A stretch of DNA of 36,671 bases, taken from positions 1-36,671 of the IMG/VR virus record IMGVR_UViG_3300025018_000309; one strand, written 5' to 3'. The stretch's first letter is position 1, and each line of letters opens with the position of its first letter. Both the position numbers and the translations under genes were made by a program. Of this stretch, positions 13,724 through 32,343 are shown in pieces. The notes beneath the pieces are model-generated. The model was given only the letters and a program-made list of their open reading frames with translations. It was not told where the DNA came from and searched no databases. The stretch comes from a virus. Lineage: Duplodnaviria > Caudoviricetes.

Positions 13724-13813
13724 AAAAATGTGTTATTTTAAGCTATAATTGCTCTATAAGCTGAGTATCCAAGACCCCCCAGCAGTCTAGTGAATCTTAC
13801 AAGAAGGTTTGGT

Positions 13814-14653
13814 ATGACTCAACTGCCATCTGAATTTACAGATACTTTAGAAGCCCACATGCTTCCGCTCCCACAGGCGGAATGCCCAGTCGTTCACCAT
13901 TTTGGCCCAGGAATTTACATACGCGAAGTTCACCTTCCAGCTGGAGTGTTGGCCTTAGGGCACAGTCAAAAGTACGAACACTTAAATATTATGCTCAAAG
14001 GATCTGTGGTGATGATCAAAGGTGGCAAAACTGAGGTCCTTTCAGCTCCTGCTATTTTTGTCGGTTCCCCTGGACGTAAATTTGGTTACGTCCTTGAAGA
14101 TACCGTGTGGCAGAATGTATACGCAACTACTGAAACCGACATCGACATCTTAGAGGCCACGTACCTCGATAAAAGCCAAGGCTTCCAAGACTATGAAGCA
14201 ACTAACTTAGTTCTGCTTGAATCTCAATCGCAAGTTGACCGCGAGGACTTCGCCCAGTTACTTTTAGACCTCGACTTGACAGACGACAACGTGAGAGCGC
14301 AGTCAGAAGAAACGTCTGACCGTATAGATCTGCCCTCAACATTATTCCCCAAAGTCTCGGTAAGATCGTCAACAATACAAGGCCGCGGGGTTTTTGCCAA
14401 CTATCCTATAGAAAAAGATGAGGTCATAGGTCCTGCACGCGTAAATGGATTGAGGACTATTCTAGGCTGCTATACAAACCATTCAAAAACACCTAACGCA
14501 AAATTCGTAGTAGACGATGGCAATATTTACTTATGCGCCGTAGATGATATCCCTGGATGCATAGCAGGATTACCTGGTACAGAAATTACCGTCGACTACA
14601 GACAGGCGTTGAAGATAAATAAAGAACTAGGGGAACTAAAATGTCAGGAATAG
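13814..14653 (+). CDS. Cupin-like domain plus SET-domain (lysine methyltransferase-like) fusion
   Basis: HHFGPGIYIRE...GH...HLNIMLKG; SET motifs STIQGRGVFA, YTNHSKTPNA, GTEITVDY. Confidence 0.8.
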   Translation: MTQLPSEFTDTLEAHMLPLPQAECPVVHHFGPGIYIREVHLPAGVLALGHSQKYEHLNIMLKGSVVMIKGGKTEVLSAPAIFVGSPGRKFGYVLEDTVWQNVYATTETDIDILEATYLDKSQGFQDYEATNLVLLESQSQVDREDFAQLLLDLDLTDDNVRAQSEETSDRIDLPSTLFPKVSVRSSTIQGRGVFANYPIEKDEVIGPARVNGLRTILGCYTNHSKTPNAKFVVDDGNIYLCAVDDIPGCIAGLPGTEITVDYRQALKINKELGELKCQE

Positions 14654-22063: not shown

Positions 22064-22558
22064 CTAGTCAAGCCCTACTTCAACCCACTTTCTTCCAGAT
22101 GATTCCCACAATTTCTGAGCATCCTTGTGTGGATACTTAGACTTGAACGCTATCACCTCACAACTAGTGTTAAGAAGCAGCTTCGTACAAGTAATACACG
22201 GGCTTACTGTCACGTAGGCAATATGTATCTGATATACATCCCTACACTGCAGCAACGCGTTCTGCTCTGCGTGTATCGCCTGACAAGCGTCTAAGTTAGT
22301 ACCACTAGGAGACGTAGCACCTTCACAAGAATTTGGGTAGACCGGCACGGCATACTCTCCTGTGCATCCGTGCTCAAAAGACTCCCCTGAAGGCTCATTG
22401 CAATGTGGTAGTCCTGCAGCTACGCCGTTATAACCAGTAGCGATTACATGGCCGCGGCGGTTCAGCATAACACACCCAACGCTTCGACGGCAGCAGGTGG
22501 ACCTTTTGGCTGTCAACTCTGCCATCTGCATAGCCCACTGGTGTCTACTGATTCTCAT
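22064..22558 (-). CDS. dCMP deaminase
   Basis: RSTC, VGC, ATGYNG, HAEQNA, SPCITC zinc-deaminase motifs; likely start ATG 22558. Confidence 0.92.
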   Translation of the reverse strand: MRISRHQWAMQMAELTAKRSTCCRRSVGCVMLNRRGHVIATGYNGVAAGLPHCNEPSGESFEHGCTGEYAVPVYPNSCEGATSPSGTNLDACQAIHAEQNALLQCRDVYQIHIAYVTVSPCITCTKLLLNTSCEVIAFKSKYPHKDAQKLWESSGRKWVEVGLD

Positions 22559-23354
22559 TAGCTTCTCCGACTCTGGTTTCCCACCAGCGTAACCACCAAT
22601 CACCAGGTCTTGAGTATCTGAGATCAGATAGCCTCTTCATAAGAGCAAAAGTGCTTCGGAACATCTTCTCCGGAGTTTTAGGTTGTAGACCAGGCAATGA
22701 GGATTCAAGACATGCGTTTGCGGCTTCAAAGTTTCTTGCGTATAGGTGAGACGAGGCAGCAGTTAGATACAAGTTACCAGGCTCAATAGAGACACCCTCA
22801 GCTGTCAACAAGCAACAAACTAAGTGACTGAGCATGCTGAAGTTGAAAACGTCGTAGGGAACCCCTAGCCATACATCAGAAGATCTCATGAAGACGTTAC
22901 AATTCAGTTTACCCTGTCTGATATTGAAGAACACCGCAATGGTACACGGCACGTCTTTAGTCTCAGGAGGGTTCTCTCGCCAGATCGTTAATCCGGCTTG
23001 TCGCGAATCCTGGTCCTGAACAAGTTTGTCTACCACGTACTGGAGCTGGCCGACAATCTTAGGGCCGTAGGCCCCAAAGAAAGTCTTACCATCATCACTG
23101 AACTGGGAAATATGCTTATTAAACGGCGCGATACCTTCAACCGAATCATCTCCGTTAAGAATCCAGTATGCTTCTGCCGTCATGAACGTATAGCTTAGTT
23201 TACGCTCACTCAAGTCTAGAACAGGGCGGCGCATATCGACTACCATTGTTCTCTGGAGTACCTCCTTCGTCTCTTGACCACGAGGAGATACTGTTGAGCC
23301 ATACGACATAATATCAGCCAAGCTGCTAATCCAAATAGAAGTGAAATTATCCAT
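22545..23354 (-). CDS. Thymidylate synthase homolog, predicted dCMP (hydroxy)methylase type
   Basis: SPRG, FSDDG...GAYG, DSRQA, catalytic DVPCT, MRSSDVWLGVPYD (Asp in place of the ThyA Asn), SSHLY. Confidence 0.85.
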   Translation of the reverse strand: MDNFTSIWISSLADIMSYGSTVSPRGQETKEVLQRTMVVDMRRPVLDLSERKLSYTFMTAEAYWILNGDDSVEGIAPFNKHISQFSDDGKTFFGAYGPKIVGQLQYVVDKLVQDQDSRQAGLTIWRENPPETKDVPCTIAVFFNIRQGKLNCNVFMRSSDVWLGVPYDVFNFSMLSHLVCCLLTAEGVSIEPGNLYLTAASSHLYARNFEAANACLESSLPGLQPKTPEKMFRSTFALMKRLSDLRYSRPGDWWLRWWETRVGEANENQ

Positions 23355-23724
23355 GACTTTTCTCCGTGGATGCAATATAGAACCCAGCATAGTTGATAAT
23401 ATCAAGGGCAGTGTCAGCCAGACCTTCGAAGTTGCTGTCTTTACCGTCCAGCTGCTTTTGGACAATAGAGTTGAACCGCTGCGCTTTAGTATGTAACATT
23501 TGCGCGTAGCTCACTGGACCAAACGGGAAATAGACAGAACGGTCTACTTTATGGGGGTTCTGATCTTTCCCGTGGTTGTAGTCTTGGCTCTTTCTGAGGC
23601 ACAGCAAAGCTGCAGAGGCCAGAGCACCAGGATGCCCACCACGCAGCTCTAGTTCTTGGAGCAATTCCTCAGTTGAAGCCTCTGCTATTGACTGGAAGAG
23701 CGAGCCCTGCTTTACTTTTCCCAT
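23347..23724 (-). CDS. Nucleotide-modification-associated helical protein (DUF1599/Nmad1-like)
   Basis: RKSQDY...TKAQRF...EGLADTALDIINYA. Confidence 0.7.
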   Translation of the reverse strand: MGKVKQGSLFQSIAEASTEELLQELELRGGHPGALASAALLCLRKSQDYNHGKDQNPHKVDRSVYFPFGPVSYAQMLHTKAQRFNSIVQKQLDGKDSNFEGLADTALDIINYAGFYIASTEKSHG

Positions 23725-24110
23725 GAGAGTATCTCCTTAAGCTTATCCTCAGGACCTGTCCAGCCAGCAGGCTTGACGACGTCTAGAGTAGTGCCGCGCT
23801 TCGACTGTCCTTCTGAAGTAGCACGCTCTTTCGCCATATTCGCGTCTTGCACAGCACCTTCGCCTACGGCCCATTGTTTAGGATTGATCCCCATGAACAA
23901 AGCAGTTCCATGGGCGACGTAGACAAGGTCGAGTAAAGCATCAAAAGCCTTGACTCTATCGCCGTCCTCTAAAGCTTCGTGAAGCTCGTCCAACTCCTCT
24001 TGCAGGAACCCAAGCCGGAAAGCCTGGGCATGACTATCACCTGTCAATTGATCTGTTTCCCCATCTGGCAGACCAAACTTCTTATGAAAATCCAGTACAT
24101 CTCCTATCAT
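23712..24110 (-). CDS. MazG-like all-alpha NTP pyrophosphohydrolase
   Basis: DFHKKFG, LQEELDEL, DALLDLVYVAHG, ANMAK, VVKPAGW. Confidence 0.88.
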   Translation of the reverse strand: MIGDVLDFHKKFGLPDGETDQLTGDSHAQAFRLGFLQEELDELHEALEDGDRVKAFDALLDLVYVAHGTALFMGINPKQWAVGEGAVQDANMAKERATSEGQSKRGTTLDVVKPAGWTGPEDKLKEILSWEK

Positions 24111-24916
24111 TTTACACCTCGTTTAGCGCGTCGTGACTGACGCTTGTTTTCAAGTGGCTTACGGCAGATCCAGAGATTATTGCGTGAATGATCTGGGTAC
24201 AGTGGCCCAAAAATATTACTGACGGCGTCATTGTCGAAATACTCACTGAGAGCTCGTCTCAACTGATCTACCTCCCCTTTACTAATACCGAGACCTGGGG
24301 TTACATGGTCTGCTTTACCTATATGCTTGATATCCATGAACGTGCCAAAGCGTCGCTCAACAGCGAACCCGGCGGCCTCAGTCTCATCTTGGAGCTCATC
24401 TACGTAGTACTCGTGGATATGGTTTGCCGCATGGCGCTTACCGTCGTAGACTGGCGTAGACATCAGCATTACGCCACCCGGCTTTAAACAAGCGAGCGAA
24501 GCTCTAAGAAGCTTCCGCCCTGCTTCAACTGGCATGTGCTCGATAACTTCAAAGTGCACTACTACGTCAAACAACCCGTGCTTGTCAACCAGTTCTTTAT
24601 GGCGAGTAGTAAAGTCGAACTCACCGTAAAAGTCAAGGCGCTGGCTCTTTGACTCTTTAAGCTTGTTAAGATCAACACCCACGTAGCGGTCAACATGCGC
24701 TGCAGCTCCGCCAGTCAGGATCTTGCTTAACGGCTTCTCTTCGCCGCACCCTACTTCTAAGACTGAGTCTTTAGGGGTTATGAAGCGACGAGCGAATGAC
24801 CAACGGAAGAAATGCGCAGAGTAATCTCTGTGCAAAGTCTTCCCATGGCCGTTAATTTTAAGTTGTGTAGTATCGAATTCATTACTACCTCGTTTAGACT
24901 TTCGTGTTATCGGCAT
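24107..24916 (-). CDS. Class I SAM-dependent methyltransferase (small-molecule type)
   Basis: VLEVGCGE, YVGVD, FDVVVHFEVIEHM, LKPGGVMLMSTP, HIHEY. Confidence 0.88.
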   Translation of the reverse strand: MPITRKSKRGSNEFDTTQLKINGHGKTLHRDYSAHFFRWSFARRFITPKDSVLEVGCGEEKPLSKILTGGAAAHVDRYVGVDLNKLKESKSQRLDFYGEFDFTTRHKELVDKHGLFDVVVHFEVIEHMPVEAGRKLLRASLACLKPGGVMLMSTPVYDGKRHAANHIHEYYVDELQDETEAAGFAVERRFGTFMDIKHIGKADHVTPGLGISKGEVDQLRRALSEYFDNDAVSNIFGPLYPDHSRNNLWICRKPLENKRQSRRAKRGVK

Positions 24917-24925
24917 AAGGTTCTC

Positions 24926-25555
24926 CTATCTAGCCTCTGGTGGGTTTTCGCCTTTCTTCTTAAGGTTGTTACGGTACCAGTTTACGTACCCGCGCTTTTT
25001 CTCGTCAAGCCCGAAAGCTTCTTTTACCTGCTCGAAGATCTCGTTGTCTGTAAGCTTGCCTGACATGATAAGATCTTGGAACATTTGGGATGCCGACTTA
25101 TACTCTGCCCCGTCTACAGGCGGAGCCGCAACCGGCTTCTTGGCCTTACGCCTAGATCTCACAACAGCCTTCTCAACTTCTTTAGCAACCTTTTTTGGCA
25201 GACTTATCAATCTACTTAGCATCTTTTCTTTGTCCTCATTAGTAATACTAACTATCCTTTCTAAATACATCACCACATCTTCAGAGGCACCAACAGCAGT
25301 TGCGTAGTTAACATATAGCTGGGCAACTTTATCGACTGGGAATCCACTAATTTCCGAGTACCGTTGGTAAAACGACTGCTCAAATGTTTCGCTTACTTGG
25401 AACCCATCTGCTATGTCCATGGATATAAATTTTACTATGCCGCCATCTAGTTTGTCAACCATCAGACAGATACGCCGCTGTGAATCCCAGAAAGCTTCTA
25501 CCTGTGGTCGGTTATTTCTTCTATGATCAAGCTTGTTTCTCATTTTCCTTCTCAT
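24926..25555 (-). CDS. Hypothetical protein with basic linker and C-terminal putative DNA-binding domain
   Basis: C-terminus resembles that of 26010-26507. Confidence 0.65.
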   Translation of the reverse strand: MRRKMRNKLDHRRNNRPQVEAFWDSQRRICLMVDKLDGGIVKFISMDIADGFQVSETFEQSFYQRYSEISGFPVDKVAQLYVNYATAVGASEDVVMYLERIVSITNEDKEKMLSRLISLPKKVAKEVEKAVVRSRRKAKKPVAAPPVDGAEYKSASQMFQDLIMSGKLTDNEIFEQVKEAFGLDEKKRGYVNWYRNNLKKKGENPPEAR

Positions 25556-26009: not shown

Positions 26010-26507
26010 CTAATCCTCAAATCTACGAACAATGTTATCCGCTGCAGTTTGCGGGTCAAAGGCTGGAGGGAGCTCACGCTTGCGACGCAGCTCGCACCGG
26101 TACCATGCAGGGTAGTGCTTCTTATCTTCGTTGAAACGTTCTTCGCCGTACTTCGCTTGAAGGGCTTTAAAGATCTCATCGTTAGTTGCCCCATCGAGGA
26201 TCATGTTTCTACAAAGATCGGAGATAGTAGGTTCTTTATCTGCCTTAACTGGCTTCTTCTTGGCGGCTTTCTTTGGCTTGGCCTTAACTTGTACCTGAAC
26301 AGACTTTTTAGCTCGGATCTCTTCCTGTATGCTGTCACACTTACGAACAGCCTTCGCCATAAGGTCCCAAGTTCTCTTCTGGCCTATAGGTTTTGTCGAG
26401 AATTTCTTTACTACCGGCTCTCCCAGGAATTCTGCATATTCATTATAGGCAGAGACTAACTGAGGCCCGGTAAGAGCCTCAAGTTCACTAGGCGTGAAAG
26501 TTTTCAT
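26010..26507 (-). CDS. Hypothetical basic protein, putative DNA-binding
   Basis: First gene after a promoter; KAKPKKAAKKKPVK linker; C-terminal helical WYR domain. Confidence 0.7.
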   Translation of the reverse strand: MKTFTPSELEALTGPQLVSAYNEYAEFLGEPVVKKFSTKPIGQKRTWDLMAKAVRKCDSIQEEIRAKKSVQVQVKAKPKKAAKKKPVKADKEPTISDLCRNMILDGATNDEIFKALQAKYGEERFNEDKKHYPAWYRCELRRKRELPPAFDPQTAADNIVRRFED

Positions 26508-30191: not shown

Positions 30192-30421
30192 TAGGTTTCC
30201 TCCGGGTTATCGAATACGTGCCACGCAGAATCTTTACGAAAGACGCGCGGATAGCATACAGTTATTAAGTTAAGCTTTTCAAGTCTATTGACTATAGCGT
30301 TCTCGGTGCGCCCAAACTCTTCTGCCAACTCCGTAAGATTTCGGCCCGCGTCAAATAGGCATACTAACTTTCTGAGGCCAGAATCAGACCAGGGCTTGTA
30401 AGCATTACGAGGTGCGTTCAC
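30191..30421 (-). CDS. Small HTH-like protein
   Basis: NAYKPWS...ELAEEFGRTENAIVNRLEKL. Confidence 0.65.
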   Translation of the reverse strand: MNAPRNAYKPWSDSGLRKLVCLFDAGRNLTELAEEFGRTENAIVNRLEKLNLITVCYPRVFRKDSAWHVFDNPEET

Positions 30422-32343
30422 ACTAACTCTCCTTTGACATCGTAGGGCTTTAGCTCACCCCAGTTGGTGGATGAAGTATCACCCTCGCTTAAAATTGGCA
30501 CGTCAAACTCAACAGACTCCATAGTCTCCCGCAAAACTTCCATAGCTTCTGCCACATCTTTCTTGGGCACAGATACTGTGATCTGGTCATGCACGTTTAC
30601 TAGTATTTTCCACTGAGGTTTCTTAGCCCCATGGAACCTGATGATGGCTTCCTTAGTGCAGTCCGCAGCAGATCCTTGAATCAGTACGTTCACAAGCTTA
30701 TAATCAAAGCTCCTTAACCTGCCTTGGACTATCTTAGGTTCTTCACAGTAATACTCGCGACCTCCCCATGTACGAATGGGTATCTTAGACGCAGCTCTTA
30801 CCTTCATGTCCTTGTACATCTCTTTAAGCCCTGGGTAGAGCAGTAGAATAGCCTTCTTTAACTCACTAGATTCAGCCACAGACATCTCATTACGCTCTGC
30901 TAACTTACCTACACCCATGCCATAGATCAGGCCTAGATTCGTGTTCTTAACTGGCTTACGGTCATAGAACTTGCCCATTTTCTCAAGCTCTGCTTTGGCG
31001 TAATCGTGGAAATCGATCCACTTGTTTTCTAAGTACTTCTCCATGAGAGAGCCACCATCGAAATGCGCTAAGATCCGAGGTTCTTGCTGACTGTAATCTC
31101 GGTCGATTAAGACTTCATCCTCAAACGGAGTGATATAGCTCCTCACCTTAGGCAGTGGCGGAAGATCTTTAAACGGTGATGGTGGCAAGAGCTTACGCTT
31201 CTTACGATCAGATTCGTCGTGCTTAAATATGGCCTTAAACTTGTTAGGTATATTTTGAAAGTTAGGCGTAGACGACAGTCTCCCAGTACGTGTCCCTGAG
31301 TTGTCTGCTCCTTTAGGGGCTCTGACCTGATTCCAGTTAGTAAAAATTAACCCGCCAGACATCTCAGCCGTTTTCAACCATGGGATCATGAACGTGTTCA
31401 AACAGGTATTAATCTGAGACCTGTACTTCAGGACTGACAGTAGTTGACTATCTGTAACAGCGACGAGCAAAGCTTCTTTACTAGTTTGGTGCTTGCCGGT
31501 AGGTGTCAATGGAGCTTTACTCTCATCAACCAGCCCAGCAGTTAACATAGCCTCAAACAGTTGCTGGCCAGAATTGAAGTTGATATTAGGATCACAACCA
31601 AGTCTAGTAATAAGCCACTCGTCCAGCTTGACTCTCCACCCGTCGTACATCTCAACGTCACTGCGAAGTCTATCTAGGTCAACTGGAAGTCCTTGCCTTT
31701 CCATCTCAAGGAGGATAGGCATCAGCCGTCTCTCACGATCGTAAGGCTCAAGCATGCCCCGCTCTAATGTTCTAGGATAAAGAAGATTGAACATGGCATC
31801 AGTTCTATCCACGTCACCGCAAGCGTACCTTCCTACCAGCTTCCCTGGTGCGTAGCATAGGTACCTACCAAAGTAATGTTCGCTGCTTTTAGACTTACTA
31901 ATCTTAACTTTGGGAATAGGCTGGTTAGTAAGCAAATAGTCGCATACTGCATCTTGCTCTTCTGGAGGCCAGTCTAACAGGCGCTCGGAAGCTTCTTTCA
32001 ATCCTAATTCTCGTTGGTGAGGATCTTCTAGGAACAGAAGAAGCATAGTGTCGTGTATAAGATCCCAAGAAGGAGGTTTAAGGCCAAACCAATGTTCTGC
32101 AACGTCAACGTCGAATTTCCCGTTCTGGAAAAGAACGCCGTCCTTGCACTCGTAAGCTCCTGCCACAGCTTTGACGGCATCGTCCCATGAGCAGTTGTTC
32201 TCTGTAGGATGACCAAACGCGTAGTATTTAGACTTACGCCCCGGCTTCTTGATGGCGACACCAACTGGTATAGGGGGATATTTAGGGCGCCCTTCTATTC
32301 CAAAGGTCTCAAAGTCGATGGTGATAGGCTTCGGGTGCTTCAT
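30418..32343 (-). CDS. polA: Family A DNA polymerase with 3'-5' exonuclease
   Basis: IDFET, NGKFD, YACGD, TRTGRLSSTPNFQN, motif A DYSQQEPR, motif B RKPVKNTNLGLIYG, IQGSAAD, motif C VHDQ. Confidence 0.95.
   Translation of the reverse strand: MKHPKPITIDFETFGIEGRPKYPPIPVGVAIKKPGRKSKYYAFGHPTENNCSWDDAVKAVAGAYECKDGVLFQNGKFDVDVAEHWFGLKPPSWDLIHDTMLLLFLEDPHQRELGLKEASERLLDWPPEEQDAVCDYLLTNQPIPKVKISKSKSSEHYFGRYLCYAPGKLVGRYACGDVDRTDAMFNLLYPRTLERGMLEPYDRERRLMPILLEMERQGLPVDLDRLRSDVEMYDGWRVKLDEWLITRLGCDPNINFNSGQQLFEAMLTAGLVDESKAPLTPTGKHQTSKEALLVAVTDSQLLSVLKYRSQINTCLNTFMIPWLKTAEMSGGLIFTNWNQVRAPKGADNSGTRTGRLSSTPNFQNIPNKFKAIFKHDESDRKKRKLLPPSPFKDLPPLPKVRSYITPFEDEVLIDRDYSQQEPRILAHFDGGSLMEKYLENKWIDFHDYAKAELEKMGKFYDRKPVKNTNLGLIYGMGVGKLAERNEMSVAESSELKKAILLLYPGLKEMYKDMKVRAASKIPIRTWGGREYYCEEPKIVQGRLRSFDYKLVNVLIQGSAADCTKEAIIRFHGAKKPQWKILVNVHDQITVSVPKKDVAEAMEVLRETMESVEFDVPILSEGDTSSTNWGELKPYDVKGELV

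Follow-up and report, generated by a model that had tools for sequence, protein, structure and literature searches.

A conserved five-gene cassette encoded by a tailed phage of the class Caudoviricetes (IMG/VR record IMGVR_UViG_3300025018_000309) was analyzed with regard to DNA base modification. Judging from sequence, the cassette is predicted to replace the cytosine of phage DNA with 5-hydroxymethylcytosine (5hmC), the hydroxyl of which would be capped by an S-adenosylmethionine (SAM)-dependent methyltransferase (MT) to give 5-methoxymethylcytosine, a reading to which we give about an even chance. The window, i.e. the whole stretch of DNA analyzed, corresponded to one complete phage genome of 36,671 nt (CheckV 100%) with a direct terminal repeat of 125 nt. 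The five overlapping genes described in an earlier note on this DNA were recovered as open reading frames (ORFs) and by Pfam matches (Methyltransf_23, E 9e-15; Thymidylat_synt, 2e-24; dCMP_cyt_deam_1, 8e-19), all of them on the minus strand within positions 22064-24916 and in the transcription order MT, MazG-like, Nmad1, thymidylate synthase (TS) homolog and dCMP deaminase. Consecutive overlaps amounted to 4, 13, 8 and 14 nt once two starts had been corrected on the basis of alignment and Shine-Dalgarno-like motifs (TS homolog, ATG at 23354, 269 aa; deaminase, ATG at 22558, 164 aa), and we infer translational coupling across the five genes. The features of the cassette were:

22064..22558, minus strand: zinc dCMP deaminase, 164 aa, with HAE...PCxxC (PF00383, motifs)
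22545..23354, minus strand: TS homolog, 269 aa, predicted dCMP hydroxymethylase (residues D143/C146/T147/D169/D177, E. coli ThyA numbering)
23347..23724, minus strand: Nmad1/DUF1599-like all-helical protein, 125 aa, candidate kinase substitute (weak PF07659 match, PHROGs, slot position)
23712..24110, minus strand: MazG-like/PRA-PH NTP pyrophosphohydrolase, 132 aa, predicted dCTPase (PF01503 E 2.7e-11, phrog_671)
24107..24916, minus strand: class I SAM methyltransferase, 269 aa, predicted 5hmC O-methyltransferase of a virus-restricted family (Pfam, metal ligands, fold)

Gene content, residues, linkage and fusions were observed directly, and the reactions that follow are predictions made from them. 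The MazG-like enzyme would convert dCTP to dCMP, which the TS homolog would turn into 5-hydroxymethyl-dCMP (hm-dCMP) with methylene-tetrahydrofolate, a step for which DHFR would not be required. The deaminase would convert some of the dCMP to dUMP, from which the host makes dTMP. Conversion of hm-dCMP to its triphosphate would fall to Nmad1, or in relatives to the dNMP kinase that occupies this slot; PolA of the phage would insert the modified dCTP into DNA, and the MT, with SAM and a divalent-metal site of HEN1 type, would methylate the 5-CH2OH group. The methyl cap would then be the counterpart of T4 glucose, as a barrier to restriction enzymes and to nucleases that depend on 5hmC. In the literature covered, hypermodified cytosines bear sugars or carbamoyl on 5hmC or 5-hydroxycytosine; capping by a methyl ether would be minimal and need only SAM. 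If true, the proposal would add one DNA base and one class of DNA O-methyltransferase, and the MT could serve as a tool for labelling or protecting 5hmC in methylome sequencing, like the T4 beta-glucosyltransferase.

Residues and predicted product of the thymidylate synthase homolog

The TS homolog contained RSSDVWLGVPYD, the last Asp of which aligned with an Asp of the CMP hydroxymethylase MilA, its best PDB match, and with the Asn of canonical TS; the assignment to the dCMP type by Asp at ThyA position 177, made in the earlier note, was thereby sustained. Asp at this position selects dCMP, Asp or Glu at 143 is a mark of hydroxymethylases, and Asn at 169 one of 5-hydroxy-dCMP synthases (PMC13326640, PMC6400193, PMC8670742). 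In T4 dCMP hydroxymethylase (dCH) the D145N change abolishes activity, and the signature of hydroxymethylases is an Asp placed three positions ahead of the catalytic Cys (PMC6400193). The TS homolog had both the Asp177 of the T4 gp42 type, associated with dCMP specificity, and the Asp three residues before the Cys (TKDVPCT; ThyA 143, T4 D145). Of 95 unique TS cores, drawn from 156 TS-bearing loci, 93 had the full set D143/C146/T147/D169/D177, T4 gp42 and phage G gp319 among them, and the two exceptions were controls, namely Xp12 (N-C-P-D-D, a methylase) and SP10 (D-C-N-D-N, a dUMP enzyme).

The marks of other TS-family enzymes were absent. D169 was retained in all 95 cores, in place of the Asn of 5-hydroxy-dCMP synthases of RB69 gp48 type; D143 and T147, together with no DHFR match, distinguished the homolog from the 5-methyl-dCMP synthase of Xp12, the single methylase compared; and the Asn177, Leu143 and His147 of canonical ThyA were not found, the protein falling below all NCBIfam cut-offs. 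Identity was 38% to phage G gp319, 33% over 122 aa to the Xp12 TS and about 30% to gp42. A quick TS tree, in which reference enzymes lay on long branches, was not used to place the homolog among T4, SP10 and Xp12. On these residues, hm-dCMP is very probably the product, and 5-methyl and 5-hydroxy products are disfavoured; among the methyl, hydroxymethyl and hydroxy forms that the earlier note had left side by side, only the second was retained. Its suggestion of 5-methoxycytosine is likewise disfavoured, because D143 and D169 are kept while 5-hydroxy synthases need D169N, and 5-methoxymethylcytosine stays as a live candidate.

That the cassette acts on cytosine, as had been proposed, agrees with the TS residues shared with T4 gp42 and with the published neighbourhood of TS, deaminase, PRA-PH and PolA, which has been tied experimentally to modified cytosine (PMC8670742; bioRxiv 2024.12.05.627091). 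The MetaGPA clusters, which include the 5-methylcytosine (5mC) phages Xp12 and PaMx74 and a carbamoyltransferase pathway, share the Asp177 TS, dCMP deaminase, PRA-PH and PolA, with a MazG-Nmad1 protein added in Xp12, whereas the present cassette has hydroxymethylase residues and neither DHFR nor carbamoyltransferase. In MetaGPA modified-cytosine contigs significant enrichment is recorded for TS, PRA-PH and thymidylate kinase and not for DUF1599. The logic of the T4 5hmC pathway (gp56 dCTPase, gp42, gp1 kinase, cd deaminase, alpha/beta-glucosyltransferases) is shared along with the five TS residues, yet here a distant TS with Gly for Ser94, a MazG-like enzyme for gp56, Nmad1 for gp1 (in relatives, a fusion of thymidylate kinase and uracil-DNA glycosylase, TMK-UDG), PolA, and a SAM methyltransferase for the glucosyltransferases were found. 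The same cassette in the same order is present in the cultured siphoviruses AXL3 (gp27-31) and PW916 (ORF58-63), the MT being 67.7% identical to AXL3 gp31 and the TS 54-55% identical (53.8% for AXL3); they differ in having a kinase-UDG fusion where this genome has Nmad1, and in morphology from the P22-like head module here. The genes were read as thymidylate supply in both papers (PMC7504290, PMC9414467).

To call the operon undescribed, as the earlier note did, was thus an overstatement, since the block is listed in the AXL3 and PW916 papers and the link of TS, deaminase, PRA-PH and PolA has been published. The TS/deaminase/MazG core is already published (MetaGPA). The word "methyltransferase" is absent from the main text of PMC8670742 and appears in bioRxiv 2024.12.05.627091 only in other contexts, and no O-methylation is mentioned in the accessible portion of bioRxiv 2023.12.21.572611. 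No report of the MT role or of methoxymethylcytosine in phage DNA was found in the open literature, a coverage that left out subscription journals, bioRxiv supplements and Iyer et al. 2013.

Linkage, family and metal site of the methyltransferase

An MT unlinked to the TS homolog in related phages would, according to the earlier note, have refuted the proposal; the two were in fact linked. The MT query retrieved 72 IMG/VR loci, 66 with the TS homolog and the other six ending within 578 nt of the MT; a distant MT query (P0127) gave 15 loci with TS in 13 (L164 is cut at the MT), and TS was present in six of seven GTDB contigs carrying the MT. Among 50,697 phage records the MT had only five matches (AXL3 twice, PW916 and two metagenomic genomes), all with the cassette. 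A single-sequence TS scan of viral contigs gave nothing, and an alignment-based search gave the loci of the TS-first set, in which the MT accompanied 62 of the best 80 of 507 TS loci, and 55 of the 68 for which 3.5 kb or more of upstream sequence was available, shares inflated by a TS alignment built mostly from MT-linked genes. In a comparison of four cassette genes over 56 loci, conservation was highest for the MT (66%, against 59% for TS), and nine of the ten Atlas clusters listed for it were 95-100% viral.

The MT is dispensable for the cassette, since it was missing from 13 of the 68 loci. In three MT-less loci (L150:3069-6120, L152:3739-6799, L162:2386-6668) its slot held an SGNH-like protein, an unnamed 380-aa protein and a PLP-type enzyme, a set which suggests that the slot serves tailoring enzymes, and these Asp177 TS cassettes possibly encode another undescribed cytosine hypermodification. 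We take this three-gene set to resemble thymidine-hypermodification genes. In the other MT-less loci (e.g. L141, L142, L151, L160) the slot was empty. The cultured Pelagibacter phage HTVC200P (L004) carries a 52%-identical hydroxymethylase-type TS and a kinase with no MT nearby, and is a candidate plain-5hmC comparison phage; the TS of HTVC119P is similar. The locus L182:8112-8695 had MT, MazG, kinase and deaminase with no TS match in a shorter-than-usual gap, which may reflect a broken or mis-assembled TS gene.

A class I Rossmann fold was predicted for the MT (pLDDT 92). The invariant columns of an 87-sequence alignment were E123, E126, H127, S153, P155, H166, E169 and G191, and the best PDB matches of the family profile were UbiG and HEN1 enzymes, both O-methyltransferases; among the five profile alignments shown, only those with HEN1 extended through the distal His-x-x-Glu. 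In human HEN1 the metal ligands for Mg2+ are E132, E135, H136 and H181 (PMC10781085), with which E123, E126, H127 and H166 of the MT aligned. These four were kept in 142 of 142 aligned domains, i.e. the window protein and 141 of 150 distant representatives, nine having been left out for domain length. The class I fold and an E-x-x-E-H / S-T-P / H-x-x-E metal site are thus common to the MT and the HEN1/HENMT1 2'-O-methyltransferases, from which it differs in falling under the bacterial Hen1 cut-off (TIGR04074; no match for the window MT, weak matches for 24 of 87 members, best E 8.5e-08), in having no Pnkp partner in sight and in its DNA-modification context. By these sequence measures the MT is not a member of the HEN1 family. 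Some generic bacterial methyltransferases share the HEN1-type metal motif. The top structural neighbour was CmoM/SmtA (Z 19.5, rmsd 5.1, 207 aligned residues), with 16% identity. CmoM/SmtA and Trm9 methylate C5 side chains of tRNA uridines on a carboxyl group, not an alcohol.

In line with the earlier note, motif and Pfam checks revealed in the window MT no PC or (D/N/S)PP(Y/F) motif, including DPPY, NPPY and SPPY, and no match to PF00145 or to N6/N4 methyltransferase families; in relatives PF00145 occurred only as a separate fused domain. The conserved residues point to a metal-assisted hydroxyl methyltransferase, and its target is read as the hydroxyl of 5hmC because this is the only new hydroxyl that the cassette is predicted to make; overall, we see the chances of that target as evenly divided. 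A C5-DNA-MTase-like domain with an intact PPC motif was fused to the MT, in both orders, in 25 of the 150 distant representatives, which favours action on DNA, while fusions to PRA-PH (one representative) and to dCMP deaminase (one) favour action on nucleotides; DNA is in our view the somewhat better supported substrate.

Divergent C5-DNA-MTase-like genes, these fusions included, were seen in, or fused into, cassettes of the predicted hm-dCMP type (L075:5702-7711, L067:7855-8964, L069, L073, L118, L128, L139, L165, L173, P0127 and 24 other representatives), with the PPC motif intact and, in three cases, inteins. In P0158 and P0185 (~370 aa) and P0126 (~340 aa) the MT was fused to unnamed N-terminal domains; by eye that of P0158/P0185 resembles a glycosyltransferase, but Pfam, PHROGs and PDB gave it no name beyond phrog_14998, a family without assigned function.

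Restriction data from a cultured relative and competing explanations

AXL3 DNA resists 35 of 37 restriction enzymes, both cutters having AT-only sites, and the authors left the modified base unidentified (PMC7504290). KpnI, for which the AXL3 genome has 13 sites, is among the enzymes resisted (PMC7504290); it fully cuts DNA of Xp12 (5mC) and SP8 (5-hydroxymethyluracil, 5hmU), and not that of T4gt (5hmC) (PMC7653180). KpnI resistance therefore argues against plain 5mC in AXL3 and fits 5hmC or a derivative, in a comparison that crosses laboratories and conditions. AXL3 also resists XbaI and PdmI, an isoschizomer of XmnI (PMC7504290), and XbaI and XmnI partly cut T4gt DNA (PMC7653180); this was rejected as a sign of a base bulkier than 5hmC, given that the 5mC DNA of Xp12 resists both too and that AXL3 has one XbaI site. 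With AXL3 and PW916 in culture and the AXL3 modification still to be named, the proposal is testable now.

Several observations weigh against 5-methoxymethylcytosine or the route to it. The AXL3 pattern fits plain 5hmC equally well and does not imply the extra methyl. Methyltransf_23, a broad Pfam family, is not significantly enriched in MetaGPA modified-cytosine contigs (27 vs. 1436, corrected p 1). The structural score of HEN1 (Z 16.7) was below that of CmoM/SmtA, and many unrelated class I enzymes scored 16-18, so that the fold does not name the substrate; moreover, the HEN1 metal coordinates a vicinal diol, a group absent from 5hmC. Besides the cassettes without MT, the distant locus L171 has MT and ThyX with no TS within 8 kb, and if C5 is already substituted throughout, the presence of a C5-DNA-MTase-like partner is difficult to account for. 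As for the TS homolog, the position of T4 Ser94, a functionally important residue of T4 dCH (PMC6400193), is Ser in Muldoon as well, but Gly (G-A-Y-G) in this enzyme and in those of AXL3 and phage G. In addition, D143 was partly built into the TS-first search pattern, the MT-first set being free of that bias.

Some of these points also speak for a different division of labour, in which the DNA would contain plain 5hmC and the MT would methylate another hydroxyl, on a nucleic-acid end in the manner of HEN1, on a sugar, or on a protein or small molecule in the infected cell: the HEN1 site is adapted to a terminal ribose diol (PMC10781085), the AXL3 data go no further than 5hmC, and both MT-less cassettes and L171 exist. 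This explanation is nevertheless unlikely in our judgement, as the MT is rarely apart from a hydroxymethylase-type TS in the three locus sets given above, the exceptions in the first being truncated, and is fused to pathway enzymes. Nor was a glycosyltransferase or Pnkp-like partner seen among this genome's scanned ORFs; the earlier note had recognised neither glycosyltransferase nor DHFR, and both were missing in three scans covering 30, 42 and 15 window ORFs.

The same linkage would also suit methylation of the modified cytosine at another atom, e.g. N4, giving N4-methyl-5-hydroxymethylcytosine with a mass equal to that of 5-methoxymethylcytosine, and N-methyltransferases were among the profile and fold matches. 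With no DPPY/NPPY/SPPY motif, and with invariant residues forming the metal-ligand set known for hydroxyl activation, this outcome is decidedly improbable. Even less probable is a route through uracil, in which the deaminase would be selective for hm-dCMP and the MT would lead to 5-methoxymethyluracil in place of some thymine, cytosine being 5hmC. Deaminases beside a dCMP-type TS can indeed be 5mC/5hmC-selective (bioRxiv 2024.12.05.627091), and cutting at AATT is compatible with a modified T because MluCI cuts 5hmU DNA (PMC7653180), but the deaminase is distant from that of Xp12 (33% over 51 aa), AXL3 encodes ThyX, and the UDG-like domain of many relatives would more likely remove such bases.

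We attach a slightly smaller probability still to an Xp12-like route, with 5-methyl-dCMP made by the TS, some dTMP by the deaminase, and an incidental MT. Nmad1 and MazG are common to Xp12 and PaMx74, both full 5mC phages, and five of seven tested MetaGPA TS homologs made 5-methyl-dCMP (bioRxiv 2024.12.05.627091); the present homolog has D143/T147 rather than N143/P147, Xp12 has a DHFR and this genome none, and AXL3 resists the KpnI that fully cuts Xp12 DNA. Finally, an ordinary thymidylate supply, as the Pfam and NCBIfam labels and the AXL3 and PW916 authors have it (PMC7504290, PMC9414467), can scarcely be right when D177 switches specificity to dCMP, AXL3 also has ThyX and its DNA withstands every tested enzyme whose site contains G/C.

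Nmad1, the kinase slot and the remaining genome

Nmad domains were reportedly defined by Iyer et al. 2013. The Nmad1 protein matched PF07659 at E 0.0023 and 18.7 bits, under the Pfam cut-off of 25; its Atlas cluster was 27% PF07659 (score 0.92), and it shared 47.7% identity with the Xp12 MazG-Nmad1 fusion over the C-terminal half of the latter. The slot between MazG and TS held either Nmad1 or a dNMP kinase of ~300 aa, usually with a fused UDG-like domain: among the 95 cores, 62 had the kinase, 27 Nmad1, none both and six neither. The absence of a dNMP kinase noted earlier held for this genome, in which no thymidylate kinase, T4-type dNMP kinase, ThyX or NMP-kinase P-loop was found encoded, but not for most relatives, where a kinase gene sits in place of Nmad1. 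Over whole records the slot-kinase family was found in 0 of 26 Nmad1 genomes (controls 5/5; 13 of the 23 IMG/VR Nmad1 records were at least 90% complete), and Nmad1 in 0 of 30 kinase genomes (controls 2/2). On the quick TS tree the kinase/Nmad1 label switched 14 times, even between near-identical TS genes, with at least two switches forced by well-supported branches and a shuffled mean of about 25. Xp12, the DNA of which has 100% 5mC (PMC7653180), carries the MazG-Nmad1 fusion, and kinase-family, T4-type and P-loop searches found no kinase in it.

The shared slot, the lack of co-occurrence and the kinase-less Xp12 suggest that Nmad1 might do the job of the dNMP kinase, which we hold as a tentative proposal with somewhat less than an even chance. 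Against it, Serratia phage Muldoon has Nmad1 beside a dCMP hydroxymethylase and a T4-type kinase, and Nmad1 is without a P-loop. Foldseek gave no match for it at E<=0.001, the best VIA match (Z 7.9) consisted of helical hairpins with none above background, and no profile similarity to the MazG gene was found, a result that neither shows nor excludes a MazG-like fold. Alternatively, Nmad1 could stand in for the UDG-like domain while phosphorylation is left to a host kinase, or could be a TS accessory protein, since it adjoins TS-family genes in unrelated phages. Homologs lay directly upstream of such genes in Muldoon (L178:5755-6219) and in Pelagibacter phage Kolga (L179:5980-6432). The exchange of Nmad1 and kinase suggests what this domain of unknown function may do in base-modification loci, and the suggestion is testable. 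The broadest version of the proposal, i.e. a widespread phage lineage with 5-methoxymethylcytosine made by a metal-dependent O-methyltransferase of HEN1 type acting on DNA, together with Nmad1/DUF1599 as a new P-loop-less dNMP-kinase replacement (also in Xp12), is improbable as a whole.

The UDG-like domain (weak PF03167) was fused to the kinase in L011:8199-9110 and most kinase-type loci and stood alone in L165:7281-7961; it may remove deaminated 5hmC. In some relatives a dUTPase_2-like gene took the place of the MazG-like gene, a putative dCTPase. The deaminase, which likely supplies dUMP for host dTMP synthesis, adjoins a dCMP-type TS, the context of methylation-selective cytidine deaminase (mSCD), a polyphyletic trait with no sequence rule (bioRxiv 2024.12.05.627091), and selectivity for modified dCMP is conceivable.

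Two further features bear on the surroundings of the cassette:

24926..25555, minus strand: conserved hypothetical protein, 209 aa, directly upstream of the MT (phrog_17205; paralog at 26010-26507)
30418..32343, minus strand: family A DNA polymerase, predicted to incorporate modified dCTP (PF00476, syntenic in relatives)

The 209-aa gene persisted in loci without MT, and nearly all relatives had the phrog_17205 paralogs (24926-25555 and 26010-26507 in the window) upstream of their cassette, a related domain ending some C5-MTase-like proteins. The genome also encodes a P22-like head and portal module, PolA, a ligase, an SNF2-type helicase and a primase (Pfam, PHROGs). Promoter and terminator counts were no higher than the shuffled level. 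The best-matching DNA sequencing runs were aquifer and groundwater metagenomes, and no RNA sequencing runs carrying the genome were listed. No host was assigned, because the seven GTDB matches were contigs of 34-54 kb in metagenome-assembled genomes of unrelated taxa, probably binned phages. A tail-fibre-like gene (13790-14653) had a weak C-terminal SET-domain match (PF00856, E 3.7e-06), and a minus-strand ORF (1-441) crossed the genome junction and ended in a long (SAW)n tripeptide repeat.

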